Of a stretch of DNA of 64,000 bases, positions 18,807 through 63,365 are shown piece by piece. Source of the stretch: Armatimonadota bacterium (GTDB lineage: Bacteria; Armatimonadota; UBA5829). The translations under genes and the position numbers were made by a program. The stretch lies in assembly GCA_012522575.1 (NCBI GenBank), contig JAAYKE010000067.1:383-64382 (forward strand). Direction: 5' to 3'. Each line of letters starts with the position of its first letter. Position 1 is the first letter of the stretch. The notes beneath the pieces were generated by a model. It did not search any database, was not told the DNA's origin, and saw only the letters and a list, made by a program, of their open reading frames with translations.

Positions 18807-19078
18807 CTCTTCGTGAGTGATAGCAGTGACAGGTCTCTGTCCCAGTCACACAAACTATGTCATTTCGAACGAAGTGAGAAATCTGCTTTCCGTAAATCGC
18901 GAAAGCTCGAAGGAAGCGAAACCCAGAAAAGAGAAGGGAAAAGCAGATTCCTCAGCACTTGCCTCGGAATGACAATTTACTTGGCGCATTTAAGTGTTGT
19001 AGGTAGCTGGCATCTGTCCTAGCCCAGTCCGAGACGGAGATCGGACACTACGGACAGGATTACTGATCATTCGTGAGC
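18807..19078. repeat. Composite MITE-like repeat, copy B (inverted relative to copy A; lacks heptamer arrays but carries two TGTCATTTCG / GAAATCTGCTTTT core units and the GTCCGAGACGGAGATCGGACAC block)
   Basis: The termini CTCTTCGTGAGTG and GATCATTCGTGAGC match the termini of copies A and D. Track ORF 18813..19022+ is an artefact. Confidence 0.75.
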
Positions 19079-31909: not shown

Positions 31910-32035
31910 ACTACTGATAAAGGCAAACCTCGGGAAACCGGGGGGCGCAAAGCTATCGGGACTAAGCCGGGCAGCAAGGGTGGTCCATAAAATACCCGTT
32001 CTGAATGCCGCCACGGTATGTTGGCCGAGCCGCCG
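31910..32035 (+). promoter_or_regulatory. Candidate c-di-GMP-I (GEMM) riboswitch aptamer in the 5' leader of the small ORF / URO-D-family gene
   Basis: AAGGCAAACC-UCGG-GAAA-CCGG-GGGGCGCAAAGCUAUCGGGACUAAGCCGGGC is near-colinear with the Vibrio Vc2 core GGGCAAACC-AUUC-GAAA-GAGU-GGGACGCAAAGCC. It contains a GNRA-capped P1 hairpin and a CUAAG tetraloop-receptor-like element. It lies ~160 nt upstream of the ATG at 32194. Confidence 0.5.
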
Positions 32036-32193
32036 AAGTAGGAGTTGCCCGTGACCAGAGACTGTCGGATTCAGACTATCCGGCGAAAGGCCCAGATACT
32101 ATGGGCTGGCCAAATGCGGCGGTCTTTGATCTCAGGCGATTCGCCTTAGGTGGCTCGGCTTCTTTGCATTACCGTTATTTGGAGGCGAAGAAA

Positions 32194-32388
32194 ATGTTTA
32201 TTCCCGAAGCAAAGAACTACCTTGGCAAAGACTGCGCAGTCACTTTCAGTGACAGACACGGAAAGGTGCATACCCAAACCCTGCACATCCACGACGTGAG
32301 CTTCGTGCCGATGTATGGCGCGTGTTTAGTCGGCGATATCGACGACATCTGGCTTGATCGGGTGACCAAAATCACCGCTGTAGTGTAG
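32194..32388 (+). CDS. Small hypothetical protein (64 aa) with a strong RBS
   Basis: GGAGG 8 nt upstream of ATG gives MFIPEAKNYLGKDCAVTF.... The longer track ORF 32005..32388 would start inside the putative riboswitch. Confidence 0.4.
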   Translation: MFIPEAKNYLGKDCAVTFSDRHGKVHTQTLHIHDVSFVPMYGACLVGDIDDIWLDRVTKITAVV

Positions 32389-32568: not shown

Positions 32569-33660
32569 ATGACACCACGAGAAAATCTGCTGGCTTGTTT
32601 GAATCACAAAACACCGCAATGGGTCCCCAGAAGCGGCTCATTTACTCCCTATCAGATTCGACAGTTCAAAGAGAGAACGGGAGAGAGCGATATTGCGGCA
32701 TATTTTGGGATGGATAATCTGGGAGGCATTGGCCTCGGCCCGACCAGGCGCAGAGTCGATTTCTCCAGTTATCACAAATATTATGTTCTGCCGGATCATA
32801 TATCGGAGTATCGCATAGATGAATGGGGGGTGGGATGGGTTCCGGGATCGCTGCTTCATTTTGAGGATATGATCCACCCGATGCATTCCCTTGACAGCCT
32901 TGCGGAGTTTGAGGCGTATCCATATCCCGACCTTGACGCAGCGTATCGACTGGACGGAGTGCGTGAGCGCGTGAGGGAACTGCACGACCTGCAACTGCCT
33001 GTGATAGCATATCCGCTTCAGCTCGGAGGGACGATCTTTGAGAGTGCGTGGTATATGCGCGGGCTGGAAAACTTGCTGACCGATATGCTTTGCAACACTC
33101 AAATCGCTGCATATCATCTGGATCGGCTGACGCAAATGGCCATATCCAACGCGGCTTTTCTGGCCGAATGCGGGTCGGATGTGTTTATTTCAGGGGATGA
33201 TATCGCCACGCAGCGCGGCATGATGATAAGCCCTGAAATGTGGAGAGAATGGCTCAAGCCGCGTTTGGCAAGCATATATGAGGCGGCCAGATCAAAAAAG
33301 CCGGATATACAGATATGGTACCATTCCGACGGCGATTGTCGGGAGGTTATACCGGACCTCATTGAGATCGGAGTCACCATACTAAACCCGGTGCAGCCGG
33401 AGTGTATGGACCCGGCGTGGGTTAAGCGCGAATATGGCCGTGACCTGGCCTTGTGAGGAACTATCGGCACACAGACAACCATGCCGTTCGGCACGCCATC
33501 TGATGTGCGAGAGACGGTTAAGAGGATGATTGATCAGTGTGGGATCGACGGCGGCTTGTTCATCGCGCCGACCCACGTGATCGAGCCGGATGTACCGTGG
33601 GAGAATATCGTGGCTTTATATGATGCCTGCCGCGAATTCGGTGGTGATCCGAAAAGATAA
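32569..33660 (+). pseudogene. URO-D-family (MtaA/CmuA-like methyltransferase / uroporphyrinogen-decarboxylase-family) gene interrupted by an in-frame TGA at 33454-33456. The same frame continues for 68 more codons to a TAA at 33658-33660
   Basis: Track ORF ends ...YGRDLAL*. Downstream in-frame translation GTIGTQTTMPFGTPSDVRETVKRMIDQCGIDGGLFIAPTHVIEPDVPWENIVALYDACREFGGDPKR is the conserved C-terminus of this family. The TGA sits where homologs have Trp (L-x-F-W-G-G-x-D-T-Q). Confidence 0.6.
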
Positions 33661-33984: not shown

Positions 33985-34875
33985 TCAGGGGGATTTTGCT
34001 GTGAATGTCTCGATTAATCGTACGGGATGGTATGATTGCTTGGCTTTGCGCAGGCCGGGGATTCCGAGGTCCTGCTCCCGGTTGACGTATTTATATGACT
34101 GCGCCTCTGCCTTGCAGAATTCATTGTTGATAAGTTGATACAGGCCGTCGATTTGCGTGTGGGCTTTCTCCGCGTGAATGACCAGAGTATCGTCGTTCAG
34201 TTTTTCTCCCAGCGAGAAAGCGACGATCGCTCCACCGGCGCGAATTGCTCCGCCCACTATGCCGAGTGAGTCGAAATTGGTGAGCATCTGGTTCACCGCG
34301 CACCGCTCTTTGCGCAGACCCTCGATTGTCTCGCACATCTTATGCTCGCACCACAAATCAGCGAAAGCCTCGCACTCGACAGCCACCGACTCATCCATTT
34401 TCACATATTCATACTCTATCTGAGACCTGGCTCGCGCAATGAAGTTTCGCTTGCCGTCGAATCTGCGCCCGGCAAGCTCGATCAGGTCCTGCGCGGCGTA
34501 GACGTAGTCCGAATTGTCGGGATCATACTCGACTATAAGCCCTATATCTTTCATCTCACCGCCCGCTTCGCCGGATATGCGCTCGAATATCACGGGACGG
34601 TCGCTGCGGCGGATCATCTCCTCGACAACCGGCTTAATCGAGCCGACGCCCAGCGGCTCAAGGCTGGAAATGTGCTCATTTTGGTTGTTGATCAGCAAAA
34701 TGTGGTCGTATATGCGGGATAGCTCCGTTTGCTGAGACTCGCGCCAGGCGAATATATTGGTGAAGCTGTACGCGGAGATCTCCGTCGGCCTTTGTGCAAA
34801 GACCGCATCGAAGAAGGGCTTATCTCGCAGAGTTATTTGTCTTGATTGTGGATATTCAGGAATCATATTCATCAA
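33985..34875 (-). CDS. DUF2156 domain protein (homolog of the C-terminal lysyl-transferase domain of MprF/LysX)
   Basis: 296 aa. Family assignment is from overall pattern recall, so it is moderately confident only. Confidence 0.45.
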   Translation of the reverse strand: MMNMIPEYPQSRQITLRDKPFFDAVFAQRPTEISAYSFTNIFAWRESQQTELSRIYDHILLINNQNEHISSLEPLGVGSIKPVVEEMIRRSDRPVIFERISGEAGGEMKDIGLIVEYDPDNSDYVYAAQDLIELAGRRFDGKRNFIARARSQIEYEYVKMDESVAVECEAFADLWCEHKMCETIEGLRKERCAVNQMLTNFDSLGIVGGAIRAGGAIVAFSLGEKLNDDTLVIHAEKAHTQIDGLYQLINNEFCKAEAQSYKYVNREQDLGIPGLRKAKQSYHPVRLIETFTAKSP

Positions 34876-35647
34876 AAATGCGCCAGCGCATAATCTTCAC
34901 CGGCACATTGAACCATTTTCTTTTTGAGCCTGCCGGGGCCTTTCTCACTACAACTTTTCCATCTACCGGACTGGCCTCTATCCAACGCTCGTCTCCATAA
35001 TATATCATAACGTGTTTATCGTCGGCGACGGCCATATCTCCGACCTTGATCGTATTTGTATCGAATCCCGCCAGTTTTTCGGCGCTGCCTATCAGCCTTG
35101 TATACCCGTATTTATCCTGAGCTATATCTTTTGCGTCGATATCGCGCCACCAAAACGACCACAACTTTCTGCCCAACAACTGAGGATTGACTTCCTTTGC
35201 TCCCTGCCGCACCATAGCGTGCCATAGCGCGGCCCTCGCAAGCCCGGCGGAGTCAATTCCGATATCTGTCTCGCCGTTGACCTGATATGGAGTTCCGACA
35301 AACGCCCGCAATCGTTTATAGTAGACCTGCCGAAGCGCATCGGTGTCAGGTGGCTTGCTGCCAAGCACTGCCCAAACCACAAAGAGCGCGCTGAAAAATA
35401 CCGTCGGCCACACAGCCGCGTTTCTTTTGCCTATGCCGGAAAACAGGTAAACAAAACCGGTGAATATGCAGCTAAGCAGCGTCAAGACAAGCAGCAATCT
35501 TATCTGAGCGGTCATAGGAAAAATGCGTACGCCAATGCCGCACATCAGCAGCAATACGCCCGTTACTATCGCGCACAATACCTTGACGCTGATCTGTCGC
35601 GTAGTCTGTGTTTCGCCAGTTTCGGATTCAATTATATCGACCATCAA
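34856..35647 (-). CDS. Membrane-anchored NlpC/P60-like (C40 peptidase fold) protein with Ser in place of the catalytic Cys
   Basis: Two N-terminal TM helices, then GIDSAGLARAALWH (canonical DCSGLV) and GDMAVADDKHVMIYYG (canonical His box). Confidence 0.5.
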   Translation of the reverse strand: MMVDIIESETGETQTTRQISVKVLCAIVTGVLLLMCGIGVRIFPMTAQIRLLLVLTLLSCIFTGFVYLFSGIGKRNAAVWPTVFFSALFVVWAVLGSKPPDTDALRQVYYKRLRAFVGTPYQVNGETDIGIDSAGLARAALWHAMVRQGAKEVNPQLLGRKLWSFWWRDIDAKDIAQDKYGYTRLIGSAEKLAGFDTNTIKVGDMAVADDKHVMIYYGDERWIEASPVDGKVVVRKAPAGSKRKWFNVPVKIMRWRIFDEYDS

Positions 35648-35683
35648 AATATCTACGATCCGCCCGCGCCCATTGTTCCAATA

Positions 35684-36265
35684 TCACTTCGCCAGAGACG
35701 CGATAATACCTTCGGCTGTGTCGATGGAAACCCTTTGTCTCCAATACTTATCCTTGAGCAGCGCAGCATCATGGGAATTGGTCAAAAACCCGATCTCCAG
35801 CAGCACGGAGGGCATATAACGATATGTATCGCGCAGGACTCTGAGGCGGGAATACTGGCTCTGCGAGTCCCATTTTGCTCCCCGGTTGCGCAAATCGTGT
35901 TTTGCCAGTCGATTGACGAGTTGTTGAGCGATTGCATAGCTTCGCCTGTCCCCTTCCGCCACAAAAGCCTCCACTCCGTTTGCGGTCGCCGGCCCTGCGT
36001 TTATGTGGATGGAAACAAACAAATCGCAGTCGGCCTCTACTGCTTTCTTTCCACGTGATTCCAGGGTCACGAGCCTGCTATCCGGCCTGGTCACAATCGT
36101 TTTGATTCCGGCCAGGCGAATATTATGACCGATTCTGATGACAAAATCCAGGGCAAGCTCGTCCTCCACAAGGCCATTTGCCGCGCATCCGGTGTGGTGC
36201 AGACCACGATTTGCACCGTGGCCTGCATCGAGCGCGATTATGCGATTGTTGTCCTTCGCATTCAC
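35684..36265 (-). CDS. N-acetylmuramoyl-L-alanine amidase (Amidase_3 catalytic domain, no signal peptide; endolysin-type)
   Basis: IIALDAGHG, TRPDS, VSIHINAG and LLEIGFLTNSHD motifs. The start was reassigned to a GTG after a GGAGGT RBS (MNAKDNNRIIALDAGHG). The track ORF to 36688 over-extends. Confidence 0.75.
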   Translation of the reverse strand: MNAKDNNRIIALDAGHGANRGLHHTGCAANGLVEDELALDFVIRIGHNIRLAGIKTIVTRPDSRLVTLESRGKKAVEADCDLFVSIHINAGPATANGVEAFVAEGDRRSYAIAQQLVNRLAKHDLRNRGAKWDSQSQYSRLRVLRDTYRYMPSVLLEIGFLTNSHDAALLKDKYWRQRVSIDTAEGIIASLAK

Positions 36266-36270
36266 GCTGA

Positions 36271-36597
36271 TTACCTCCGAACCCTCTTCCACTGCTGATA
36301 TACGTGCTCGACCAGCAGGTTTGCGATGCTCTGCGGCACTGGAAAACCAAGCTCGGCTATGCATATCTTCTGAAGATAGATGACCGCCTGCTGGCGACGT
36401 TCGTCTGAGGACAATTCCGCTATCGCCCCCGCCCGTTCGATGGCGTCGGTGATTCTCTTTGCGCCGATCCTCTTTAGCCATTTGCGCGCCCAGCTCGGCA
36501 GCCTGTCCTTCTGGCTCAAATATGTGGTCAGCGCGCCCGTCACGCCGAGAGCAAGCGTAACCCAATCCCGGGTAGAAACAGTATCGAGTGTGATCAT
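36271..36597 (-). CDS. Putative holin-like small membrane protein (single N-terminal TM)
   Basis: 108 aa with WVTLALGVTGALTTYL hydrophobic segment. Its stop abuts the amidase start. The call rests on position only. Confidence 0.3.
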   Translation of the reverse strand: MITLDTVSTRDWVTLALGVTGALTTYLSQKDRLPSWARKWLKRIGAKRITDAIERAGAIAELSSDERRQQAVIYLQKICIAELGFPVPQSIANLLVEHVYQQWKRVRR

Positions 36598-36692
36598 ATA
36601 GGCTCCTTATATTATAGTTGATTGTGGGTTCTTGATTCTGAGGAGAGTGACGGCCCGCGAACCGCCGCCGATAAGTCCGGTTATCCAAATGC

Positions 36693-36992
36693 TTAATTGA
36701 GAATGGCGATTCTCACGACCGGTTCGCCGGCTATGCGGTGGACGGCGGTTTTGAGGACGGCATAGGTGCGGCCGTCGCGTGTCAGGGTATCTCCCACGCC
36801 TATGACTACATCCGGCGTTGTGGCCAGCATAAGAGCAGGATGAGTTATGCCCATTCGTTCGATATCATCCAAATACAGGCTCATATTGCCCGTATCGAGG
36901 AGCTTGAACATCCCGGCTCCGGTATTGCCGTTAATTACATATTCCTCCCCGAAACGCCGGAGCTTTTCGGCGAACCGCTCGGCAAATCGCAT
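36693..36992 (-). CDS. Phage head-closure / head-tail joining-like protein
   Basis: 99 aa. Its size and sequence pattern resemble the HK97 gp7-like head-tail joining family. Translationally coupled to the connector gene (GAGGTG-TAG-CAG-ATG). Confidence 0.4.
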   Translation of the reverse strand: MRFAERFAEKLRRFGEEYVINGNTGAGMFKLLDTGNMSLYLDDIERMGITHPALMLATTPDVVIGVGDTLTRDGRTYAVLKTAVHRIAGEPVVRIAILN

Positions 36993-36995
36993 CTG

Positions 36996-37427
36996 CTACA
37001 CCTCCTCTTTGATGCTGAATATAGGCTCTGCATCAGCGGTTGTGCTGGAGCAATGCGTCTCGGAGTCCATCGGCATGGCGCTTTTAAGATACGGAGCCAG
37101 CCGCGCGTGGCCTTGCCGAGTCAGGTCGACTCCGGATACTCCTGATGGCCCGATGGTGACTCCCGCCACGCCGAACTGCTCGGTTGCGCCGGTCTCTCTG
37201 CGCATCTGCTCGATGAATTCACCGGTTATGATTTCGAGAATCCCCAACTTGAGCGTGCCCTGCAACCCTGCGTTGAGCGTGTCGTTAAGATACATATCCG
37301 CGATGGAGTATTCGATCGGAGCCTGCATCTCGGAAATGAGCGCGGCTATAGCCGTATCGTAGTCAGTTACTGCGGAGTCAATGCCTGCTTTGCGCTTGAT
37401 ATCTGCGACAGTCAGGGTAATCGCCAT
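36996..37427 (-). CDS. Phage gp6-like head-tail connector protein
   Basis: The N-terminus MAITLTVADIKRKAGIDSAVTDYDTAIAALISEMQAPIEY matches the Phage_connect_1 pattern. Confidence 0.5.
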   Translation of the reverse strand: MAITLTVADIKRKAGIDSAVTDYDTAIAALISEMQAPIEYSIADMYLNDTLNAGLQGTLKLGILEIITGEFIEQMRRETGATEQFGVAGVTIGPSGVSGVDLTRQGHARLAPYLKSAMPMDSETHCSSTTADAEPIFSIKEEV

Positions 37428-37436
37428 TTGCGCCTC

Positions 37437-37802
37437 CTATCCGTAAAATGAGATATGAATCGTATCGTCTTGCCCTCCCTGCACGGGAGTGAAATCATCG
37501 ACGTCCAGGATCGCATAATACACCGTAGTCCCCTCCGGCACATCGTCGTCAATTGAATGCAAATCCGACAGAATATAGGCTGCATTGGATATGCTGATCG
37601 GGTCTTTGTAACCAATAATCAGCAACACATTAGAGATCGTTCTTGCGCTGAAGAACAAGCGAAAACGGGTTCCTCCGGTCACCTGGAAGCTGCCGTCGCT
37701 TTCTCCATCGAGGGAGTGCACCAGACCGCCGGTTCGCGTCCTGGCATCTCCGCCGGATGCGATATGCACCGCCACCGGCATTATATTTTTCAGATTGTTC
37801 AT
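37437..37802 (-). CDS. Hypothetical phage structural protein
   Basis: 121-aa ORF located between the capsid and connector genes. Confidence 0.3.
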   Translation of the reverse strand: MNNLKNIMPVAVHIASGGDARTRTGGLVHSLDGESDGSFQVTGGTRFRLFFSARTISNVLLIIGYKDPISISNAAYILSDLHSIDDDVPEGTTVYYAILDVDDFTPVQGGQDDTIHISFYG

Positions 37803-37909
37803 CGTATGGCTCTCCGCTTTGGGTCTTTGTTATATGGAGTCAGAAGTCTGGGTGACGATTCGCAAACCGCCACCCGTGGTGTTATTTTTCAGCTTCATTG
37901 CTGTGGCTG

Positions 37910-38817
37910 TCAGCTCACCTGGCTGCCGTAGGCCATCTGCCAGAGGCCATAGCCGGTGTTATACCGGGCGCGCACGCCATAGACAAACTCATCCCGCATA
38001 AACCCGCTCTCCGAATCCGCTTCGAGGGCCGCAAACTCAACCGGGGTTCGGCTCTGGAGGATGATCGGCTTGACGACACCTTTAGTCGAAAGCACAAACC
38101 AGTCGTTGACATCGGTCAGATATGGCGAGACAAGCAAATCGAGTTTGCCTTTGAGCACGTTTGAAGCGGCTCTTGATGTCGTGGAACCCTCCTCCGGCCA
38201 ATATGAACTCTCCAGAAGTTCCATAGCAACCCACTGCATATCCGGCGGCACTACCAGCAAATCCGGAGTTACTCCCATCAATTTGCCGCGGTCATCTCGA
38301 TATTTCATCATCGCGGTAATCGCGCTCTGCAACGCGGAAGCGGATAATGCTGCGGTTCCCTTGTTCGATTGAGACCCGGAATCCCCCTCGGAGTGATCTG
38401 TAGCAAAGAACGCCTAGCCGTCGTAGCACTTGCCGGTGAATCCGTTTTTGAGCAGGCCGAACGCTAGTTCGTCCATGTGCCTTTTCGCCTCGCGGGCCAG
38501 CGACACCACCCGCAGCTTGATCTGGCCATATTTATCGTCCTCTATGGCCGCCCTCTCGATGGCTATCGAGGACTCCCAGGTCTTGTTGCGTATCGAATAA
38601 TCGTGTTCGAGCAAGCCCAGCGGCATGCGCTCGTCGACGAACTCCCGAATTGCAGGAACCGCACCCAGCCAGGAATAAGTTTCCTGATCTGACCCGGAGC
38701 TTATCACTGTTGCGATGCGGGAATGTTCGCCGGCGGTGGCATCAAGGGCCTCGAAGAATACGGTTTTAAGCCCATCCTCAAGCAGTTTGGGCATATCTGA
38801 TCTTGTAAGCGGCATAT
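37910..38817 (-). pseudogene. Mu gpT-like major head (capsid) protein gene containing an in-frame TAG at 38414-38416. The N- and C-terminal halves are called as separate ORFs in the track
   Basis: Track ORFs 38414..38890- and 37910..38332- are in the same frame (84-nt gap, no other stop): ...GFTGKCYDG*AFFATDHSEGDSGS...LQSAITAMMKY.... Mu-gpT hallmarks are YSWLGAVPAIREF, CYDG-x-FFATDH, VVKPIILQS, FMRDEFVYGVRAR and GYGLWQMA. The likely real start is MPLTRSDMPKLL after an AGGAG RBS. Confidence 0.6.
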
Positions 38818-38967
38818 TTTTCTCCTGTTTGGATGTGATTGGTTGATGGTTGGCTGCGCATGCGGACGGACGATGATCTGCCCGTCGCATTCCAAAGCAG
38901 CCTCAAAGCAGAAAGCCCGGCGCTGAGAACACCGGGCCGATAGATGATATTGCACTGGCAGGCGAAC

Positions 38968-39576
38968 CTACTCCAGCGATAACTCTCCGATTTGGCTTAT
39001 GCCTTCGTTGTCGACATATTTGACCGCTATTTCGAAGGCCTGCTGTGGTGAAATGGGTTCAAATGAATGCACCATGATGTTCATTTGCACCGTGCGCGTG
39101 TGGTCGCCGATTTTCTGCAGCATGCGAATGCCTCTCAGCAGTTTTGCGCCTCGTCTGCGGTAGAATTCTATGCGCCGACGTGCGATATCTGCATCCGGCG
39201 AGTCCTCCGGCACTTCCACCTCGAAGACCACGAATTTCGCACCGCTTTCCTTTGCTCGTCTTACCACCTCGTCGTAGCACACTGCCCCAACTCCGCTGCC
39301 CCGCAGCGCCGGCAAAGTGGCGAGATACCAAAGCGCAAAGGCATTTATTTCGGGCTTGGTGCGATAAAACATAAGCCCGGCAAACTCCCCGCGCTCGTCC
39401 AATGCGGCGATCAGCCGACTTTCCACCCCGTCTTCCTTGATATCCGGGTTGAGGAACCGAAAAAAACCGGAAACCAGTATCTTCTCTTCGGGAGGAAACG
39501 CGGTCTCATACAAATCGAGCCAGGGCATAAAAAGAGCGTCGTTGATATCGGTTATTTCATAAAAAGTAATCTTCAT
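38968..39576 (-). CDS. GNAT-family N-acetyltransferase embedded in the capsid module
   Basis: 202 aa with an acetyl-CoA binding region (LATLPALRGSGVGAVCYDEVVRRAKESGAKFVVFEV). Confidence 0.65.
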   Translation of the reverse strand: MKITFYEITDINDALFMPWLDLYETAFPPEEKILVSGFFRFLNPDIKEDGVESRLIAALDERGEFAGLMFYRTKPEINAFALWYLATLPALRGSGVGAVCYDEVVRRAKESGAKFVVFEVEVPEDSPDADIARRRIEFYRRRGAKLLRGIRMLQKIGDHTRTVQMNIMVHSFEPISPQQAFEIAVKYVDNEGISQIGELSLE

Positions 39577-39611
39577 ACCGATTTTTTCGGCATCAATTGC
39601 TCTATTACCTG

Positions 39612-40028
39612 CTAGGCGGCATACCTGTCGATTCTGATCCTCACCGCAGTGGCGGATATGGACTCGACTGCGAACCCGGCGGTAATATTGGCCGTGGTTG
39701 CGGCATCGGTGACGGTCTGATTGTCCACGATATGGAACCCCACGCCCACATCGGTCTGAGCGCCGTTCGCGCCGCCGTCTACAAATACAAACGTGCCGGT
39801 GGTCTGGACGCGAATGCCGATATCCCCTGCGCTGCCGCCGGAGTTGTCTACGGTCTCATAGGCGACTCCGGCGAATGTTTCGGATGCGGTGTCGCTCGCG
39901 TTGGTCGCATAGCCGCTGGCGTTGATATTCACCAGCGCGCCTTTGGGAATTTTCACATTTGCCATAGGATAGCAGATGATCGCCCCATCCTTTCTTTTGG
40001 ACTCCCTGGCTGTGGTGGTTGCTGTCAT
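39612..40028 (-). CDS. Hypothetical Gly/Thr-rich phage structural protein (possible decoration/scaffold-associated)
   Basis: 138-aa ORF with beta-rich composition, located between the protease and capsid genes. Confidence 0.3.
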   Translation of the reverse strand: MTATTTARESKRKDGAIICYPMANVKIPKGALVNINASGYATNASDTASETFAGVAYETVDNSGGSAGDIGIRVQTTGTFVFVDGGANGAQTDVGVGFHIVDNQTVTDAATTANITAGFAVESISATAVRIRIDRYAA

Positions 40029-40044
40029 AAGATTCTCCTTTCCG

Positions 40045-40758
40045 TTATCTGCTCCTGTATTTTTCTACCAGCCCGCTGGTCACGCCGAGCTTTGCATACA
40101 ACTCCGGCTCTTCGACTTCCCCGGCTGCAGGCGCGACCTCCGAAAACTCAATCACCTTTGGCTGAGATTCCAAAAACCATCTGAAAACCTGAGAGATCGG
40201 AGTCGGTCGGTCGGCAAATGCGATTGTGTCGGAATCCTGCGAGCATAAAATAGCCCTTGCAAAGACCTCCGCTGCGGGCGCAATTTTGCCGCTTCTTTTT
40301 AGCTGATCTATGGCAATTTGCGCATCTTTTTCGGCTACTTCGCGGCGCAGAGCTTCATCGGAACTGCCAAATACCGAGCTGAGTTCTCCGTCGAGCCGAA
40401 CGCAATCCGCCTCCCCGAACACGGCAGCATCGGCTATCCTCGGCTCACGAACAAGGGATACCTCAGATATCCGGCTCTTGTCCTTGACAATGGCCACCGA
40501 AAGCCGTCTTGCGTTGGCAGATTTGACCAGTTCCCAGGCTGCTTTGGTAAAACACAGCCTCCCGAAAAGCTCCTTGCCTTTACGATAAACGTTTTTCAGC
40601 ACCCCAAGCGCGCCATCAAAAGGCGTCGAGGAGTGCTCAATGCGCAGCGGCGCATCGGATGTGTTGGCAATGATTCGATCGAGGTCCTCCTCGGTGATCT
40701 CAATGCCTCGATCCGGATAGCTGCCCGCCTCAAACAATTTAGCCTCACGTTCGATCAC
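40045..40758 (-). CDS. Mu gpI-like prohead protease / scaffold protein
   Basis: 237 aa. The N-terminus LFEAGSYPDRGIEITEEDLDRII resembles Mu-like prophage protein I, and its position after the portal gene fits. Confidence 0.4.
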   Translation of the reverse strand: MIEREAKLFEAGSYPDRGIEITEEDLDRIIANTSDAPLRIEHSSTPFDGALGVLKNVYRKGKELFGRLCFTKAAWELVKSANARRLSVAIVKDKSRISEVSLVREPRIADAAVFGEADCVRLDGELSSVFGSSDEALRREVAEKDAQIAIDQLKRSGKIAPAAEVFARAILCSQDSDTIAFADRPTPISQVFRWFLESQPKVIEFSEVAPAAGEVEEPELYAKLGVTSGLVEKYRSR

Positions 40759-40830
40759 AATTACCTCCTGAATTTGTTTGCATGTGAGAAATATATGGCA
40801 GTCCCATACGCTTTTATGTTCCGTGTAAAA

Positions 40831-42015
40831 CTAGCTCGGCAGACCCAGATATCCCCTGATCCACTCCTCGTCAGGCTTGATAATCTGCCCGCTCACCAGT
40901 TTTCCGATGACCTCCGCAAGCCCGGCGACATCCGCATCCTCCAGCGGCCCAAGGCTGAAGGTTGGATAGGATTTTGTCGAGAAATTGAAGTCAACCAGAC
41001 GCTTTATGACCTGCTCACGCATGACGGCTTCCTCAAGGTCGCGTTTGAGCTTATGCAGGCACATCTTGAGCACGTCGAGATGCACCTTTGCGAGCGCGTA
41101 GCTGCCCACTCGAATGCCCTCGTCGGTCATCAGCGTCTGGCAGAGAATTGCGCGGGATATCTGCTTGTCGTGCCATTCGATGGCCTGCAAATACCCCGAT
41201 TCCCCGCCACGTCCGGCCTCCAGCAGTTCCACCTGCACGTCATCCGGGATGACGATGGCGGTCTGCTGCTGAATCTTGTCCAGCACTCGCAGCAGTTCTT
41301 CCTGCGCCTGCTTCGGAGTTCCGCGCTTGTAGGAGCCTTTAGCGGTCGGGGAGCCGTGCTTCTCCAGATACAGATTCATAAACCGGGTGAGCACGTCTTT
41401 GCTCCAATAGTGCTTATATGCGGCGCGCAGATCCGATGTGCCGTAGGGGGATTCATACCTGGGCATGTGCGAATATATCACGAACTTATCCGATGGAAGC
41501 GTCCGCTCGACCGAGGCTGTCCCCGTCCGCTTCAACGCCCGCACGTTCATAAACTCATCGACCTCAAAGGAAAAAGTCGACGGGTCCTTTGCCTTTATGG
41601 AAGCGATTCCCACGCGACCTTTATGGGGGCCGTCCTCGAAAATGCTATAGTTGATTTCCAGTATGGAAAAGCCCTTTGCCAGCGCATCGAGCACATTGTA
41701 TAGCACGGTCAGTATCGAGCCGCGCATATCCGCCAGCGCAAAACGCACGAAGTCCGCGACCTCCACATCCTGCGGATCGCGCGTCGCCGGGTGCACCTCC
41801 CATCCGTGCGATAAAACCGCAAGTTTTTTGATAGTCAAACACGCCTGCACCTGAGCGTCGCGCTGCATTTGTTCATATATTGCATAACCTCTTCTGCCGA
41901 TCAGGTCATCGGGGTTGTATGAGTCGATATCGTTAATCAAAGACCCGGCAGCGGCCGTCTCATTCAGCCCGGGAGAACGCCGCTTGCTGAACCGGGAAAG
42001 CAGTGGAATCTTCAT
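40831..42015 (-). CDS. Phage portal protein (DUF935 / Mu gp29-like)
   Basis: 394 aa with a DUF935-like pattern, located immediately downstream of terL. GAGGTG RBS. Confidence 0.55.
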   Translation of the reverse strand: MKIPLLSRFSKRRSPGLNETAAAGSLINDIDSYNPDDLIGRRGYAIYEQMQRDAQVQACLTIKKLAVLSHGWEVHPATRDPQDVEVADFVRFALADMRGSILTVLYNVLDALAKGFSILEINYSIFEDGPHKGRVGIASIKAKDPSTFSFEVDEFMNVRALKRTGTASVERTLPSDKFVIYSHMPRYESPYGTSDLRAAYKHYWSKDVLTRFMNLYLEKHGSPTAKGSYKRGTPKQAQEELLRVLDKIQQQTAIVIPDDVQVELLEAGRGGESGYLQAIEWHDKQISRAILCQTLMTDEGIRVGSYALAKVHLDVLKMCLHKLKRDLEEAVMREQVIKRLVDFNFSTKSYPTFSLGPLEDADVAGLAEVIGKLVSGQIIKPDEEWIRGYLGLPS

Positions 42016-42066
42016 AAAACACCTCGGGTTTGGACGTTGGAAATTGGTTGTTGGAAGTTGGGCGGT

Positions 42067-43386
42067 CTACCAGCTTTGCCTTGCCATTCTGCCGGCCTGA
42101 CTCAAATATGCGGAATTGTGCGCAAACCCTTCGGTCTGTTTGCAGGCCAGCGCGAGGGCGATCACCAGGTCGTCGTTGATACCGACCCTGCCGTTCATAC
42201 GCACATTGCCGGAGGCGGTCAGCTCGTATTCATAATATTGAAGCTCCCGCAGAAGCTGCTCGTCGGGTAGAATGGTGATCGAACGGTGCGCGAACTTGAG
42301 GGACAAATGCTCTATCAGATCTCGTTTGGATCGGTTTGAGAATGTATAGCCCTCCACCGCCACATCGATGCCGAAGTCCCATAACCTGGCGCGAAGCTGT
42401 TCGAGCAGGGGATCCCCTATCGAAGTAGAATCGGCGAGCGCGCAACTCACTCGATGGGTTTTGAGGAACTGCGCAACCCTTGTGATCTGGCTGTCCCAGC
42501 CCATTTTATTGAACCTGTCGATGCCGATTATGTGGCAGCCGCGTTCATCCGATACCATCGCGACCACGGCGGTATAGTCCGAATATCTCGCCCAGTCTAT
42601 TCCCGCCACCACCACGCCGTCCGCGTCCGCTGCGTGCGAATCGGAGACCGCCGCCTCGATGTCCTCCCATGCAAAAACGCAGTTGGAATCGTCGATAAAC
42701 TGCGCCTCATATTCCACCGCAAACTGCCTCGGACTGATCTCCTGCCGCTGAGTTTCGATATATTGACGACTTATATGCGGGTTTGCCCACGATGGAAAGT
42801 TGAATGACCGGCACGCCGCGCCGTCATCAGACCCTGCGCCCCTCATAAATGCGCGATAGAAATGATTCCTGCCAAATGGAGTGCTGATCATAACCAGCCG
42901 ACCGTTGCGATCGGCAAGCATAGGGGAAATGACCTCGCTTATAACGGAGTCCCGAACAAACGCGGCCTCATCGACTATCACCCTGTCTGCGGAATGTCCG
43001 CGCAGATTGCGCCCATCCTCATCGGCGGTGCGCGCCATTATCAGGCTGCTGCCGAGAGCAAGCCTCGGATAGGGAGTGCGCGTGATTTTGGTGATGCCGC
43101 GAGTGAGCCGCGAGCCTGTCATCAGTCGTTCGATATGATCGAAGATGAGCCTGGATTGATCGTAAGTCGGGGAGACTATGATCTGCTTTGAGCCGGGATG
43201 CAAAATGGCGAGGGTGGCGGCGTCCACCGCGGCGGCCTCGGTTTTACCCCATCGACGCCCGCAGGATGCCACCTTAACTCCCGCATCGGTCAGCAGCCAT
43301 TTCTTCTGTGTTTCGTGCGGTTTCCATCCCCAGATATGATCGGCCAGCGTCAGGCGAACCGATGAATCAGTCCCCGCGGGCATTGT
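42067..43386 (-). CDS. terL: Phage terminase large subunit
   Basis: Walker A CGRRWGKTEAAA plus a C-terminal RNaseH-like nuclease region. The start was set to the internal Met (MPAGTD), and the gene overlaps terS. Confidence 0.75.
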   Translation of the reverse strand, partial: TMPAGTDSSVRLTLADHIWGWKPHETQKKWLLTDAGVKVASCGRRWGKTEAAAVDAATLAILHPGSKQIIVSPTYDQSRLIFDHIERLMTGSRLTRGITKITRTPYPRLALGSSLIMARTADEDGRNLRGHSADRVIVDEAAFVRDSVISEVISPMLADRNGRLVMISTPFGRNHFYRAFMRGAGSDDGAACRSFNFPSWANPHISRQYIETQRQEISPRQFAVEYEAQFIDDSNCVFAWEDIEAAVSDSHAADADGVVVAGIDWARYSDYTAVVAMVSDERGCHIIGIDRFNKMGWDSQITRVAQFLKTHRVSCALADSTSIGDPLLEQLRARLWDFGIDVAVEGYTFSNRSKRDLIEHLSLKFAHRSITILPDEQLLRELQYYEYELTASGNVRMNGRVGINDDLVIALALACKQTEGFAHNSAYLSQAGRMARQSW

Positions 43387-43744
43387 CGCCCTCCGTTTTG
43401 TCGTGAATGGCTTTGACCATATCGACCAGAGCCGCCCCGGGATCCTCACTTTCGGCATCGAAAACCCCGCTCACTTTAAGCACATCGACGAGAACCTTGG
43501 TGTCCGGTTTGTCCGGATTGGACGCCAACTGACACAGCCGAGCGGCCGAGTTCACCACTGCCTGCCGCGCTATCCTTTTGGCCCCGAGTTCCTGCTCACG
43601 CTCACGAACCCTCAAAGCGCGCGCAAAACGATCCGATTCCATCCAACCTCTTAAAGTAGAAAGACGCACCCCGATCATTTCAGCCACAACCGTATCGGGA
43701 TGACAAAGAAGCAACTCGATTGCATCACGATGTTTAGCCCTCAT
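43367..43744 (-). CDS. Putative terminase small subunit / HTH DNA-binding protein
   Basis: 125 aa with an HTH (VAEMIGVRLSTLRGWM), directly upstream of and overlapping terL. AGGAGG RBS. Confidence 0.45.
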   Translation of the reverse strand: MRAKHRDAIELLLCHPDTVVAEMIGVRLSTLRGWMESDRFARALRVREREQELGAKRIARQAVVNSAARLCQLASNPDKPDTKVLVDVLKVSGVFDAESEDPGAALVDMVKAIHDKTEGDNARGD

Positions 43745-47967: not shown

Positions 47968-48088
47968 TCGCCTTGACTCGATGTCCGAGGTCAGATGTCC
48001 GAAGTTCGATCCAGTATCACAACCCCATTCCCAACCTCCCAACCTCCAACTTCCAACCTCCAACCTCTAACCTAGATCGCCTTGACTC
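47968..48088. repeat. MITE-like repeat, copy C (inverted, truncated: heptamer array plus GGGAATGGGGTTGTGATACTGGATCGAACTTCGGACATCTGACCTCGGACATCG) flanked by the 12-bp direct repeats TCGCCTTGACTC
   Basis: Direct repeats at ~47968-47979 and ~48077-48088 bracket a ~97-bp insert, resembling a target-site duplication. Track ORFs 47834..48070+ and 47901..48104+ are artefacts. Confidence 0.7.
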
Positions 48089-56678: not shown

Positions 56679-57611
56679 ATGGAGCATATTTTAGTAACCG
56701 GAGGCGCCGGGTTTCTGGGATCGCATTTGTGTGATCTGCTGCTGAAATATGGCCACAAAGTCACGGCGATGGACAATCTGCTCACCGGCAGCATAGACAA
56801 CATCGCGCATAATGTCGACAATCCCCTGTTTAGGTTCGTAAAATACGACGTAACCAACTATCTCTACCTCGATGAACACGTTGACGCGATTTTTCACTTC
56901 GCATCGCCGGCAAGTCCTATCGATTATGCACAGTTCCCTATCCCCACGCTCAAGGTTGGTTCGCTGGGCACGCACAAGACCCTGGGGTTGGCCGTGGCGC
57001 ACAAAGCGGTATATCTGCTGGCATCGACATCGGAAGTCTACGGTGACCCGCAGGTGCATCCGCAAAACGAAAACTACTGGGGCAATGTGAACCCGATAGG
57101 GCCGCGCGGAGTATATGACGAGGCCAAGCGGTTCGCCGAAGCCCTGACTATGGCATATCATAACGCTCATGGAGTCGACACCCGCATTGTGCGCATATTC
57201 AACACCTATGGCCCGCGAATGAGGCTGCATGATGGTCGAGTGGTCCCAACTATGATATACCAGGCGTTGAAAGGTGAGCCGCTGACGGTCTTTGGAGACG
57301 GCAAACAGACGCGCAGTTTCTGCTATGTCGATGATGAAGTAGAGGGCATATATCGACTCTTCAAGTCCGGCTGCGTCGAGCCTGTCAATATAGGCAATCC
57401 CGATGAGATGACGGTGCTGGAGTTCACGCACCTTGTGAAAAGACTGACGAATTCAACCAGCGAGATAGTCTTTCGTCCGCTGCCGATAGATTACCCAACC
57501 AAGAGACAGCCGGACATTTCCAAGGCGAAAAAACTACTCGACTGGCAGCCGATAGTCAGCATCGAAGAAGGCTTGAAAGAGACCATCAAATATATAAAAA
57601 CGCTGATTTAG
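56679..57611 (+). CDS. uxs: UDP-glucuronate decarboxylase (UDP-xylose synthase), SDR family
   Basis: [17 protein letters not shown]-binding motif, catalytic YDEAKR, 310 aa. Confidence 0.85.
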
Positions 57612-57719: not shown

Positions 57720-59054
57720 ATGAGCTGGAGCCGAAACCACTTGAAAACACGCTGCATAATCGCGATTATATTAGGGCTGACGCTGGCCGCATTTTTGGCG
57801 GGTTGCGGGGAAAAGCCAACAGGCAGCAGTAATGGCGTCGTATCGATTTCCGTATGGCATCCGTGGGGAGGCTCTCAAAAGGAGCGTCTGGCGGAGGTAG
57901 TAGAGGAGTTCAACCGCACTCATCCCAACATTAAAGTGCGGGCGGTGTTTACTCCCAACGATCTCGACTCCAACCAGAAGTTCTTTACCTCAGTGGCAGC
58001 CAACAAGCCCCCTGACGCGATCTTCGTGGACGGGCCGCAGGTGGCGGCATGGGCGGAACAGGGAGCGATTCAGCCACTCGACGATTATATTGCGCAATCC
58101 GCGATCAAGCCGACGGATTATTTTGCGCCGTGCTGGGAACAGACCTCTTATCGCGGCAAGATATGGGCGATGACCTACTGCGCCGACCCCAACTTCGCGT
58201 TTGCGTGGAACAAAAAAGTCTTTCGAGACTGCGGCCTTGATCCTGAGAAACCACCGACCACCATCGAAGAACTCGATAAATTCAACGATCGTATCACCAA
58301 AATAGAAAGCGGCCGAATCATTCGCATAGGCATCATCCCCTGGGCGCAATTCGGCAACGCCAACGCGACTTTCACATGGGGATGGGCATTCGGAGGAGGT
58401 TTCTACGACCCTGTCGCACATAAAATCACTGCCAACGACCCCAAAGTCGTAAAAGCGATGGAGTGGATGACCAGCTACGCCAGAAAATATGACCCTAATA
58501 AGATCAACGCATTCACCCAGGGCTTCGGCAGTCGAGATCAAAACCCGTTCTATATAGGCCGTATTGCGATGCAGTGCCTGCATATTTCGCAGATCGACGA
58601 CATCAACACCTACGCGCCCGACCTCAACTACGGCCTCACATTCATTCCGGCCCCTTCAACAGGGGAGATGCATTCGTCGTGGGTGGGCGGATGGTGTCTG
58701 GGGATTCCCAAAGGCTCCAAACACCCGAAAGAGGCATGGGAGTTTATTCGATGGTGCTGTCGAGACCCCAAAGGAACCGAGGCGGTCGGCAGGTTGCAGT
58801 CCCTGCTGCCGGGATATCGAAAATCGCCGTTTCTCGATGAAGTGCGCAAGCGGCGCGGTTATTCGCAGTTTCTGGATATATTGGAAGCGTGCAGACATCA
58901 GCGGCCGGTTATGCCTGCGCAGTCTTTTTATATGGGATCGCTGGAGAGGGCTGTGGATTACTGCATCTACGGCAAAATGACTCCAAAGCAGGCCCTGGAT
59001 GCGTCTGCGCTCGAAACTCAGACTGAGCTTGATCTGCGGCTGGCGGGGAGGTAA
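57720..59054 (+). CDS. Sugar ABC transporter substrate-binding lipoprotein (family 1 SBP)
   Basis: Signal peptide with lipobox LAGC, and extracellular solute-binding family 1 pattern. Confidence 0.8.
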   Translation: MSWSRNHLKTRCIIAIILGLTLAAFLAGCGEKPTGSSNGVVSISVWHPWGGSQKERLAEVVEEFNRTHPNIKVRAVFTPNDLDSNQKFFTSVAANKPPDAIFVDGPQVAAWAEQGAIQPLDDYIAQSAIKPTDYFAPCWEQTSYRGKIWAMTYCADPNFAFAWNKKVFRDCGLDPEKPPTTIEELDKFNDRITKIESGRIIRIGIIPWAQFGNANATFTWGWAFGGGFYDPVAHKITANDPKVVKAMEWMTSYARKYDPNKINAFTQGFGSRDQNPFYIGRIAMQCLHISQIDDINTYAPDLNYGLTFIPAPSTGEMHSSWVGGWCLGIPKGSKHPKEAWEFIRWCCRDPKGTEAVGRLQSLLPGYRKSPFLDEVRKRRGYSQFLDILEACRHQRPVMPAQSFYMGSLERAVDYCIYGKMTPKQALDASALETQTELDLRLAGR

Positions 59055-59056
59055 AT

Positions 59057-59971
59057 ATGCAAAAATCTAAAGCCAATGCCACGGACAGGCGAAATCTGCG
59101 AAACGGGCTGCTTTTTTGTTCCCCGCTGCTGGTCGGCCTTGTGGGATTGACCCTGTATCCGGTGCTGGCGTCCCTCTATTACAGCTTTTGCAACTATCCG
59201 ATGCTCAAACCGCCTGTGTGGGTAGGGCTGGCTAACTATAAGACTTTATTCGCCGATCCGGTCTTTTATAAATCGCTTGCAAACACGGCGTATTATGCGG
59301 CTCTTGCGACTCCGCTGGGTATCATCACCGCCTTTCTGCTCGCCTTGCTGCTCAACCAGAAGGTGAAGGGCATGGCGGTCTTCAGGACGATGTTCTTTGT
59401 GCCGTCGATTGTGCCGATGGTGGCGGGTTCGGTGCTGTGGCTGTGGCTGTTAAATGCGGATTATGGTTTGATAAATACCATTCTGCGCGCGATGCATCTG
59501 CCTTCTGCGTTGATACCGGGATGGATGGCCGATCCGAAATGGTCGAAGCCTGCGCTGGTGCTGATGAGCGTGTGGGGAGTCGGCGGATGGATGCTGATTT
59601 ACCTTGCGGGGCTGCAGGACGTGCCGGTTGATCTGCATGAGGCCGCCGAAATTGACGGCGCATCTGCCTGGCAGAGAATGGTGCATATCACGATACCGTT
59701 TATGAGTCCGCACCTGTTTTTTACGCTGGTGATGGGATTTATCGGCGCGGCGCAATACTTCACTCAGGCGTTCGTTATGACCAACGGCAAAGGCGGCCCG
59801 GTGGACTCAACGCGTTTCTTCTCGCTGTATCTGTTTCAGAACGCATTTATGTATTGGAAGATGGGTTACGCCTGCGCGATGGCGTGGATATTATTCGTTG
59901 TGATTCTGCTCTTTACCCTGCTGCTGTTTAAGACATCAGCGCGATATGTATATTATGGGGGAGAAAAATAA
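59057..59971 (+). CDS. Sugar ABC transporter permease (MalF/UgpA-like)
   Basis: Six TM segments and the EAA loop (EAAEIDGASAWQRMVHITIP). Confidence 0.85.
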   Translation: MQKSKANATDRRNLRNGLLFCSPLLVGLVGLTLYPVLASLYYSFCNYPMLKPPVWVGLANYKTLFADPVFYKSLANTAYYAALATPLGIITAFLLALLLNQKVKGMAVFRTMFFVPSIVPMVAGSVLWLWLLNADYGLINTILRAMHLPSALIPGWMADPKWSKPALVLMSVWGVGGWMLIYLAGLQDVPVDLHEAAEIDGASAWQRMVHITIPFMSPHLFFTLVMGFIGAAQYFTQAFVMTNGKGGPVDSTRFFSLYLFQNAFMYWKMGYACAMAWILFVVILLFTLLLFKTSARYVYYGGEK

Positions 59972-60975
59972 TGAAAAATCGAGGCGGATTCCCCCGGGTT
60001 ATAACCTATATTGCGCTTGTTGTTCTCGGCACGGCGTTTACGCTGCCGTTTTTCTGGCTGCTTTCGACCTCCCTCAAACCGGATTCACGAATCCAGCAAT
60101 GGCCGCCGGATATCATCCCGATGCTGCCTGTCAAGGTCAAGCTCGACGGCAGGCAACGCGAGGTGCGCCTGACTCCAGATGGCGCTAAAGTCGCCTTGAT
60201 GGAGCGGCTCGAAGGCGGGAAGGCAAGCATTAAGCCGCTGGATGGCGGCAAGACGAAGATCGTGGACGGAGATCAGCTTAAACCGGTCATACGCCCGGGG
60301 TTTCAGTGGTCGAACTACACGCGGGGACTGGTTTTCATCCCGTTCTTCCAGCAGCTTAGAAACACGCTGATAATCTCGATATTCACCGTCATCGGCACAA
60401 TTTTGAGCTGCAGCCTGGTGGCCTATGGGCTTTCGAAGATCGACTGGAAGGGTCGCAATGTGCTGTTTGTGGTGATGTTGTCTACTATGATGTTGCCTGC
60501 GCAGGTGACTATGATCCCGGTCTTCGCGATTTTCGTTAAACTGGGCTGGGTGGACACGTTTCTGCCGCTCATCGTGCCGAGTTTTTTGGGAACTCCATTC
60601 TTCATCTTCCTGCTCAGACAGTTCTTTTTGGGGATACCGAAGGAACTCTCCGAGGCAGCGAAACTCGACGGGTGTGGAGAGTTTGGCATATATAGAAGGG
60701 TGATAATGCCGCTTTCCAAGCCCGCTTTGGCCACGGTCGGGTTATTCACTTTTATGGCGGCGTGGAACGACTTTATGGGGCCGTTGATTTATCTTCTCGA
60801 CGAGTCGAAATATACGCTGTCGCTGGGTTTGGCTATGTTCACCGGTCAATATGGCAACGAATACGGCATGCTGATGGCGGTGTCCGCAGTCGTCACTATC
60901 CCGATTATCGTGCTATTCTTCTTCACGCAGCGCACGTTTATACAGGGGATGACTATGAGTGGGATAAAAGGATGA
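59971..60975 (+). CDS. Sugar ABC transporter permease (MalG/UgpE-like) with an extended periplasmic loop
   Basis: EAA loop (EAAKLDGCGEFGIYRRVIMPL). ATGA overlap with the downstream gene. Confidence 0.85.
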   Translation: MKNRGGFPRVITYIALVVLGTAFTLPFFWLLSTSLKPDSRIQQWPPDIIPMLPVKVKLDGRQREVRLTPDGAKVALMERLEGGKASIKPLDGGKTKIVDGDQLKPVIRPGFQWSNYTRGLVFIPFFQQLRNTLIISIFTVIGTILSCSLVAYGLSKIDWKGRNVLFVVMLSTMMLPAQVTMIPVFAIFVKLGWVDTFLPLIVPSFLGTPFFIFLLRQFFLGIPKELSEAAKLDGCGEFGIYRRVIMPLSKPALATVGLFTFMAAWNDFMGPLIYLLDESKYTLSLGLAMFTGQYGNEYGMLMAVSAVVTIPIIVLFFFTQRTFIQGMTMSGIKG

Positions 60976-63002
60976 AACACGAAAATAATAAGTTTGGACA
61001 ATCGCAGATTACGCAAGCCGCTGATATGCAGGTGAGCCACGATTTATTCCGACGCTGGTTTGCCGGGCCGGGAGACATTCCAATCTCATTTCTGCTCGAC
61101 GGGGAAGTCATCAATGGCATCCCGTAGGGATGGAACCCAACCGTAAACAGGCGTCTTATCGATGCCAACATCACTGAGACAACGTTCGATGGCACGGACA
61201 TCAAAACCGGCCTGAACCTGCGGATTGAGTTCACGCAGTATCGGGACTATCCGGTCATTGAATGGGTGGCGTGGTTCACCAACACGAGCGAGAAACCCAC
61301 GCCGGTCATAAGCGACATTCTGGCTCTGGATGGATCAGTCGACGACGCGTCACCGGTCGTGCACCACTGGAACGGCGACTTCTACCACGAGGAAGGCTAC
61401 ACGCCATTCCAAAGTCCCCTTCGGCCCGGCGACAAACTCGACTTCGCTCCCGACGGCGGACGATCATGCGACCGGGCATTCCCCTACTACCGCGTCAAAT
61501 TCGACAACTGGGGACTCTCCCTCGCCATCGGATGGCCTGCTCAGTGGGCGGCATCTTTCATCTGCGAAACAGGCGGCCTGCGCCTTGTGGCGGGTCAGGG
61601 CAGGACAAATCTGCGGCTGATGCCGGGAGAGCGCATCCGAACGCCTCGGATTACCATGCTGTGCTGGTTCGGTGATGATTCCAGAGCGGTGAATTTGTGG
61701 CGACGCTGGTATCTGGCTCATATCCTTCCCAGACCAAATGGCCAACCGTTGAGACCTCTTCTTGCGTGTTCTGGAACCGATGACGGCGAGGAGTTCACGG
61801 AGGCGACTGAAGGCAACCAGATTGCCTGTATCAGCAAATTCGGCACACACGACATTCACCCTGATGTCTGGTGGATCGATGCCGGATGGTACCCCTGCCG
61901 TGACGGGGAAGGCAATCGCAGATGGTGGCGCACCGGCGAATGGGAGCCTGACCCTGATCGGTTCCCCAACGGTCTCAAGCCCATATCCGATTGGGCTGCC
62001 GAGAGCGGCGCCGATCTGCTGCTCTGGTTTGAGCCGGAAAGAGTGCAGCCCGGCACTCAAATCGACGTGCAGCGCCCGGAGTGGTTGCTCAAAGCCCAGG
62101 GCGACGACAACGGGCTGTTGAACCTTGGCAACCAGGAGTGCCGCCAATGGCTTACGGATCACTTTTGCAGTCTGATTCAGGACAACGGAGTAAAGATATA
62201 CAGACAGGATCACAACTTTGCGCCGCTGCAGCACTGGCGCGAGAATGAACCCGAGGACCGCCAGGGCATACATGAGAACCTGCACGTGCAGGGTTATCTT
62301 CAGTTCTGGGACGATCTGCTGGCGAGAAATCCGGGCCTGTGGATTGACTCATGCGCGAGCGGAGGGCGACGTAATGACCTTGAAACGATGCGCCGATCCG
62401 TGCCCCTGCACTATACCGACTTCGGCTATGGAAATCATCCGATCAAGCTTGCGTTCCATCGCACGCTGTTCGAGTGGATACCCTACTTCAAGGAATCCAC
62501 TCTTTCCTGGGATAAAGCGGAAACGCCGACCGATTTTTCCGCCGTTGACAGATTTGACCGCGCAGTAGACAGCTATTCGTACCACTGCGGCTTTGCGGCT
62601 ATGCTCTATGCCAGTCTGAACATAAGGCGCGAAGACTATGACTATGCCCTTGCCGGGAAGATGATTGCCGTCTGGCGCAGAGCCGCCGATGTGCTACTCT
62701 ACGGCGACTACTATCCCCATACGCCGTTTCACCGGAGCATTGAGAAGTGGGTCGCGTGGCAGTTCGATCGTCCCGAACGCGGCGAAGGCTTTATTCAAGC
62801 GATTCGGCTCCCGCTTGCGCCGGACGATACTATCACCATCCGCCCAAAGGCGCTCTGTGAAGACGCCCGCTATGTATTCGAGAATGGCGAAACCGGGGAC
62901 GCCATTGAGTTGTCTGGGGAGACGCTGATTCGTGACGGATTTGCGATTACTTGCCCGACCAGAAACGCTGCGATATGGTTCTATAGGTCCAAACACTCAT
63001 AG
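60972..63002 (+). pseudogene. GH36-like alpha-galactosidase gene with an in-frame TAG at 61125-61127; contiguous reading frame from the ATG at 60972 to the stop at 63002
   Basis: Track ORFs 60762..61127+ and 61266..63002+ share a frame, and the 138-nt gap has no stop: ...ISFLLDGEVINGIP*GWNPTVNRRLIDANITETTFDGTDIKTGLNLRIEFTQYRDYPVIEWVAWFTNTSEKP.... Catalytic-domain motifs are WWIDAGWY, LLLWFEP, YRQDHN and IDSCASGGRRND (GH36/GH27 clan). The ATG overlaps the permease stop (ATGA). Confidence 0.55.
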
Positions 63003-63365
63003 CGTAACAACTCACGAATGATAAGCGCCCCTGCCTGTAGTGTCCGATCTCCGTCTCGGACAGCAGGTGTTCGTTGATAGATTGCCCGGCTGGGACAGAG
63101 ACCATTTAGAGGATAGAGGTTGGAAGTTAGAGGTTAGAGGTTGGGAATGGTTTGGCGATACCGGCTCGAACTTCGGACATCTGACCTCGGACATCGAAAA
63201 AAGCAGATTTCTCACTTCGTTCGAAATGACAAGGTTCGTGTGGCTGGGACAGAGGCCAGCCGCTACGGTTTAGAGGTTAGAAGTTGGAGGTTAGAGCTTG
63301 GGAATGGTTTGGCGATACCGGCTCGAACTTCGGACATCTGACCTCGGACATCGAAAAAGGATTAA
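63003..63365. repeat. MITE-like repeat, copy D: terminal block CTCACGAATGATAAGC...GTCCGATCTCCGTCTCGGAC followed by two tandem ~157-bp units (heptamer array + GGCGATACCGGCTCGAACTTCGGACATCTGACCTCGGACATCGAAAAAAGCAGATTTCTC + CGAAATGACA + TGGCTGGGACAGAGGCCAGCC)
   Basis: Direct comparison with copies A, B and C. Track ORFs 63012..63215-, 63040..63273+, 63141..63341+ and 63298..63513+ are artefacts (shared peptide MGMVWRYRLELRTSDLGHRK). Confidence 0.8.

Follow-up and report, generated by a model that had tools for sequence, protein, structure and literature searches.

A private in-frame TAG in a GH36-type alpha-galactosidase gene of an Armatimonadota genome is a single G-to-T change and not a recoded codon

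The window analyzed here is a stretch of 64,000 nt from a metagenome-assembled genome (MAG) of an uncultured biogas-reactor bacterium, which its DnaK assigns to Armatimonadota. Near its end lies a sugar ABC-transporter gene cluster closed by an alpha-galactosidase gene. The genes upstream of the alpha-galactosidase were placed by mapping gene calls and Pfam matches of two near-identical contigs, L082 and L083, onto the window. The features of this locus are as follows.

56679-57611, plus strand: SDR epimerase/dehydratase, upstream of the alpha-galactosidase
57720-59054, plus strand: sugar-binding protein
59057-59971 and 59971-60975, plus strand: two permeases
60972-60975, plus strand: ATGA start/stop overlap, translational coupling to the permease at 59971-60975; read from the sequence and identical in the related loci L001 and L002
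60972-63002, plus strand: GH36-type alpha-galactosidase gene, identified by translation, Pfam, full-length homologues and fold matches; broken at codon 52
61125-61127, plus strand: premature amber codon TAG in place of GAG (Glu52), by G-to-T at 61125; GAG in L001, L002, L082 and L083
61266-63002, plus strand: residual ORF of 578 codons chosen by the ORF caller, with a GTG start and without the 98 N-terminal residues
63000-63002, plus strand: natural terminator of the alpha-galactosidase gene, also TAG; the next in-frame stop is TGA 63075, 24 codons on

The ATG at 60972-60974 overlaps the TGA at 60973-60975 of the upstream permease ORF and opens a frame of 677 codons (676 sense codons and the terminator), in which TAG 61125-61127, at codon 52, is the sole internal stop. 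Both the WWIDAGWY and the DSCASGGRRND motif are found in this frame, downstream of GTG 61266, which is the first in-frame start after the premature TAG. An earlier sequence-only reading had described this arrangement, namely the ATGA overlap, a frame broken by one TAG with the catalytic motifs in ORF 61266-63002, and the position at the end of a sugar ABC transporter operon, and on each of these points it was borne out. The protein of the residual 578-aa ORF had no record under an exact-protein look-up, nor had two large proteins and the private ferredoxin allele.

The conceptual 676-aa product matches the Pfam Melibiase family (PF02065) with 64 bits against a gathering score of 27 (E = 1.5e-17), and all its sequence matches in the PDB are GH36 alpha-galactosidases (2xn0, E = 6e-17). 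In a database search the query had thousands of homologues, about 650-680 aa long, that cover 97-100% of it, including the part upstream of the GTG. The subgroup to which the enzyme belongs is large and uncharacterised, with members in MAGs of Chloroflexota, Latescibacterota, Armatimonadota, Planctomycetota and other phyla. An AlphaFold model built from the homologue alignment was of moderate quality overall (mean pLDDT 62), and its N-terminal domain, residues ~30-130, reached pLDDT 86-95. When this model was compared with the PDB using Foldseek, the top 22 matches were all GH36 enzymes (690-740 columns, E ~1e-25, TM 0.55-0.60), and with the moderate model the three-domain GH36 fold could be recognized: an N-terminal beta-sandwich, a (beta/alpha)8 barrel and a C-terminal beta domain.

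Like the solved GH36 enzymes, AgaA and AgaB of Geobacillus stearothermophilus (4FNR and 4FNQ) and those of Lactobacillus acidophilus (2XN0) and L. brevis (3MI6), the window enzyme is thus a Melibiase family member, and it shares their three-domain architecture over ~710 aligned columns (TM 0.55-0.60). Its 'CASGGRRND' aligns with 'CSGGGGRFD' of 2XN0 and its 'YRQDHN' with the nucleophile segment 'IKWDMN'. In the HMMER alignment D413 (KIYRQDHN), invariant in 21 homologues, falls on the aspartate of that segment, which we take to be the catalytic nucleophile, also from the titles of mutant entries in the PDB (AgaA D478A). A candidate for the acid/base, expected ~70 residues downstream of the nucleophile, is the invariant D483 (HYTDF), located where the HMMER alignments have already ended (at 471-474) and where the model has low confidence (476-553). 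On the other hand, the window enzyme is only ~15% identical to the solved enzymes, is shorter (676 aa against 720-760) and differs in its premature stop.

As the ORF caller chooses 61266-63002, it could be argued that the enzyme starts at GTG 61266 and that 60972-61265 is a non-coding leader left open by chance. The homologues speak against this. For those of 650-680 aa the alignment begins near residue 13, and as full-length homologues align across the TAG, GTG 61266 is not the start of the gene. An alignment of 21 sequences has 14 invariant columns within residues 1-98. The model places a helix at 16-27 and beta-sandwich strands at 39-42, 45-48, 57-64, 67-75, 81-90 and 95-104, those of residues 39-104 being confidently modelled. 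Finally, the relatives share the ATGA coupling and a 676-codon gene with no interruption, and in L001, L082 and L083 the gene calls give the same gene at its intact length of 676 aa. On homology and on the structure model the GTG start was rejected, and we give it hardly any credence at all. The suggestion that the 98 codons upstream of the GTG are genuine N-terminal beta-sandwich sequence, to be checked by aligning the segment to the family across the stop, was therefore upheld. To judge from its sequence, this is a real 676-codon GH36-type alpha-galactosidase gene, translationally coupled to the permease, whose product has predicted alpha-galactosidase activity. The interrupted position itself is variable in the family, with E the commonest residue and Q, K, D, A and T also present in the 21-sequence alignment, and in the model residue 52 is located in a loop.

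We then turned to other assemblies for the state of codon 52. It is GAG (Glu) in four independent assemblies. Two of these, L001 (from Logan; the DNA of P0001) and L002 (a locus of a GTDB genome), are orthologues at 88-91% nucleotide identity; P0001 is the closest database protein (93% identical, 676 aa) and has Glu at position 52. The other two are from biogas reactors and are nearly identical to the window: L082 (JGI 3300038805), 99.937% over 11,194 nt, and L083 (ENA ERZ941572, run SRR3166067), 99.935% over 7,743 nt. Both have G at 61125 and carry an intact gene for the 676-aa enzyme. As G is found in these contigs and in the orthologues, the TAG is a derived G-to-T transversion private to the window sequence. 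A derived stop, a sense codon in the orthologues and a gene of conserved full length are what a nonsense allele presents. The comparison with related genomes proposed along with the sequence-only reading thus went against a conserved TAG. That reading had also allowed for a sense codon surfacing in other data, and GAG in four assemblies comes very near to that outcome; the TAG allele is seen in this deposit alone. Scans of metagenome_contigs for the alpha-galactosidase site and for the capsid site described below, with N at the variable base, gave no match; as four known loci contain the alpha-galactosidase pattern, this shows only that the collection lacks these samples. Comparison data came from biogas-reactor project PRJNA283612 (PMC5985405).

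The divergence of this operon from L002, the nearest other species, is uneven. Over window positions 57720-63002 the alpha-galactosidase gene is 94% identical in nucleotides, its first 330 nt ~98%, and the adjacent transporter genes only 83-86%. Such mosaic divergence hints at a recent recombination or transfer of the alpha-galactosidase gene.

The TAG at codon 52 had been presented as the second of its kind in the window. The other TAG does exist: it lies in frame at 38414-38416 on the minus strand, in a phage-type capsid gene that is otherwise intact. Mapping of the gene calls of near-identical contigs revealed one further internal stop, a TGA. Internal stops were found in only these 3 of the 57 mapped genes. 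The two additional cases are the following.

37910-38815, minus strand: Mu-like gpT major head gene (PF10124, E = 9e-76), 301 codons, with premature TAG 38414-38416 (codon 134) in place of AAG (Lys)
32569-33660, plus strand: URO-D family gene, 363 codons, with premature TGA 33454-33456 (codon 296) in place of TGG (Trp); TGG in L086 and L087

Codon 134 of the capsid gene is AAG in the near-identical contigs L086, L087 and L088. Among 301-aa homologues the site is Lys in the nearest full-length ones and Gln in more distant ones, and a scan of viral_contigs recovered one distant relative only, with AAG. The exact-protein look-up returned no record for the capsid fragment. In the URO-D gene the Pfam domain spans residues 108-356, across the premature TGA, and in the NCBI deposit the gene is split into two products, one of 295 and one of 59 aa. 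All three internal stops are private single-base changes (GAG to TAG, AAG to TAG and TGG to TGA). One TAG stands in place of Glu and the other in place of Lys and, with TGA as the third stop, the internal stops are not specific to amber.

The capsid gene belongs to a Mu-like head-gene cluster at window 34856-43744 on the minus strand, with host genes on both flanks. The cluster is made of a small ORF, Terminase_6N, Portal_Mu, three ORFs, the gpT capsid gene, four small ORFs, Amidase_3 and one more ORF. Genes for tail proteins, an integrase or a transposase were not seen within it. The capsid protein is found at full length and 66-91% identity in hundreds of Armatimonadota contigs. The cluster may be a domesticated, gene-transfer-agent-like element.

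Since the 64 kb contain two otherwise intact genes with an in-frame TAG, and one of the two is a late gene of phage origin, it might be thought that TAG is decoded or tolerated here, by a suppressor tRNA, as pyrrolysine, through a code-15-type reassignment or by context-dependent read-through, so that the full-length enzyme would still be made and in-frame TAGs would characterize the genome. There is precedent for this in phages, where TAG is recoded to Gln with suppressor tRNAs, and where the known recoding combines such tRNAs with avoidance of TAG as a terminator (PMC10879173, PMC11210395). The window does the opposite. Terminators could be seen for 57 mapped genes and are TAG in 22, TAA in 21 and TGA in 14. 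TAG thus is the commonest terminator in the window, ending the alpha-galactosidase gene itself as well as the terminase and portal genes that adjoin the capsid case. This usage is unusual, since most bacteria use TAG less than either other stop. The sites are not conserved either: they go back to two different codons, one for Glu and one for Lys, and both are sense codons in contigs that match the window at 99.94%. To this the third internal stop adds a TGA. No tRNA gene was found in the window or in 8 related loci, and no pyl gene in the Pfam gene map. The RNA downstream of the premature TAG of the alpha-galactosidase gene is not unusually structured (z = -1.73), and a read-through signal was rejected on this ground.

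The likeness to known amber recoding, such as that of code-15 phages or of pyrrolysine in methylamine methyltransferases, is therefore superficial and comes down to an in-frame TAG in a functional-looking gene. On terminator usage, non-conservation and the TGA case the pyrrolysine and suppressor readings were rejected. We consider amber suppression, pyrrolysine or a code change very unlikely, and that the full-length enzyme is still made from this allele highly improbable. More improbable still would be a lineage with nonsense suppression, through a tRNA-CUA or leaky termination encoded outside the window, in which private stops are partly read through and persist in expressed genes. The recurring, possibly decoded amber that the sequence-only reading had implied was accordingly not supported. 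The TAG reflects one G-to-T substitution, which is a very young null allele or else an error in the MAG consensus, and it is neither a recoded codon nor the consequence of a mis-called start.

What such a change would do to the gene can be outlined. The private G-to-T at 61125 would turn codon 52 of an otherwise intact gene from GAG (Glu) into TAG and, as TAG is an ordinary terminator here, ribosomes arriving from the coupled permease gene would halt after 51 residues. A product started at GTG 61266 would be devoid of helix 16-27, of about six strands of the N-terminal beta-sandwich and of 14 invariant residues, from which we infer a loss of function, the truncated enzyme being presumably inactive. 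With a stop after 51 residues and a presumably inactive product from the GTG, the allele would be a young null allele.

The three internal stops are part of a larger set of private differences of the window. Contigs nearly identical to the window (99.94%) cover 58,996 of its 64,000 bases. Over these 59 kb, 23 substitutions and no indels are private to the window assembly, at sites from 554 to 61125; 5 are synonymous, 13 missense, 3 nonsense and 2 intergenic. The coding changes are distributed as 24% synonymous, 62% missense and 14% nonsense, where uniform random substitution of these sequences would give 23.5%, 72.8% and 3.7%. The nonsense share (3 of 21 coding changes) is a borderline excess over chance (p = 0.04), and two TAGs out of three are unremarkable, 46% of nonsense changes being expected to give TAG. 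By comparison, natural divergence of the same operon from L002 comprises 430 synonymous and 116 non-synonymous codons against 5 and 16 for the private set (Fisher p = 2e-7). The private changes are thus unfiltered by selection, being either very young mutations or errors. Overall, they suggest that either the consensus is noisy or the lineage is very young and perhaps a mutator. A diversity-generating retroelement or other targeted mutator was rejected because the changes are spread along 60 kb, hit many genes and include every base class.

Several properties of the set would fit a sequencing or assembly error in the consensus, in which case the cells carry GAG and an intact 676-aa enzyme, and the other 22 changes are largely errors too. 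GAG is found in every other assembly of the population. The set resembles uniform random substitution, with 8 transitions to 15 transversions where 1:2 is expected. Natural mutation spectra typically have a transition fraction of 0.6 or more, and a fraction of at least 0.6 is disfavoured for these changes (p = 0.013). G:C to T:A, a class typical of oxidative library damage, accounts for 7 of the 23. The changes are clustered, with four gaps shorter than 100 nt (p = 0.007), and low-coverage contigs of the same population (L089, L091 and L092) have similar clustered substitutions near their ends. Exact-sequence look-ups recorded six window-private protein alleles only from the NCBI deposit (proteins NLN75853-NLN75892, locus tags GX139_); the alternatives to them are found in ENA, JGI and Logan data and in the LSQX whole-metagenome assembly.

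Against an error stands first the rate. At 4e-4, or ~4 per 10 kb, the error rate would be high for an Illumina de Bruijn assembly that yielded a 99-kb contig. Secondly, JGI and Logan contigs break at 45735|45736 and at 40821-40829, and one of them, L084 (JGI), has its end precisely at 45735, the base preceding a private cluster at 45736, 45762 and 45804. A contig break at this point in an independent sample, as from a graph branching between alleles, points to real polymorphism at that cluster and suggests that the private alleles include at least some genuine polymorphisms of the community. Thirdly, very recent real divergence has dN/dS near 1 and looks unselected as well, so that 5 synonymous against 16 non-synonymous changes also have the look of very young mutations. 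We accordingly see consensus error as a serious contender that falls somewhat short of an even chance.

A real young null allele, that is, a fresh pseudogene in a strain whose cells do carry the T, is in our view marginally better than an even bet. The three stop-bearing genes are all plausibly dispensable. Weighing against the null allele, three premature stops in 59 kb is a high density, which extrapolates to ~50 nonsense codons per Mb, a load that would weigh heavily on a viable lineage, and the transversion-rich, clustered and indel-free private changes fit consensus error equally well.

In either case we see here a private premature stop of an ordinary kind, in a normal gene of the GH36 family. 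As in ordinary nonsense alleles, young pseudogenes and consensus errors of MAGs, there is a single derived stop in a gene that is intact in near and distant relatives, with no other lesion and in the company of further unselected private substitutions; save for the high density of premature stops, the window is not distinctive. The case calls for caution, as an in-frame TAG in a conserved gene, even with a second one nearby, is no evidence of recoding, and both the use of the codon as a terminator and the state of the site in near-identical assemblies need checking before recoding is claimed. It also flags this MAG as carrying ~4 private, unselected substitutions per 10 kb, three of them gene-breaking. 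Metabolic reconstruction from it is affected for alpha-galactoside use and for a URO-D-type enzyme. If the stops are real, the strain has just lost the last enzyme of its sugar-uptake operon.

Other features of the window were observed along the way. A c-di-GMP-I riboswitch (RF01051, 64 bits) is located at 31912-32037 on the plus strand, upstream of a 64-codon ORF at 32194-32388. An intergenic repeat family with a 157-nt period is present at 3879-4135, 63088-63358, 47978-48070 and 18835-18889, with units such as TAGAGGTTGGAAGTTAGAGGTTAGAGG ... GGCTGGGACAGAGACCAGCC and loci that are 88-97% identical. It looks REP- or MITE-like.
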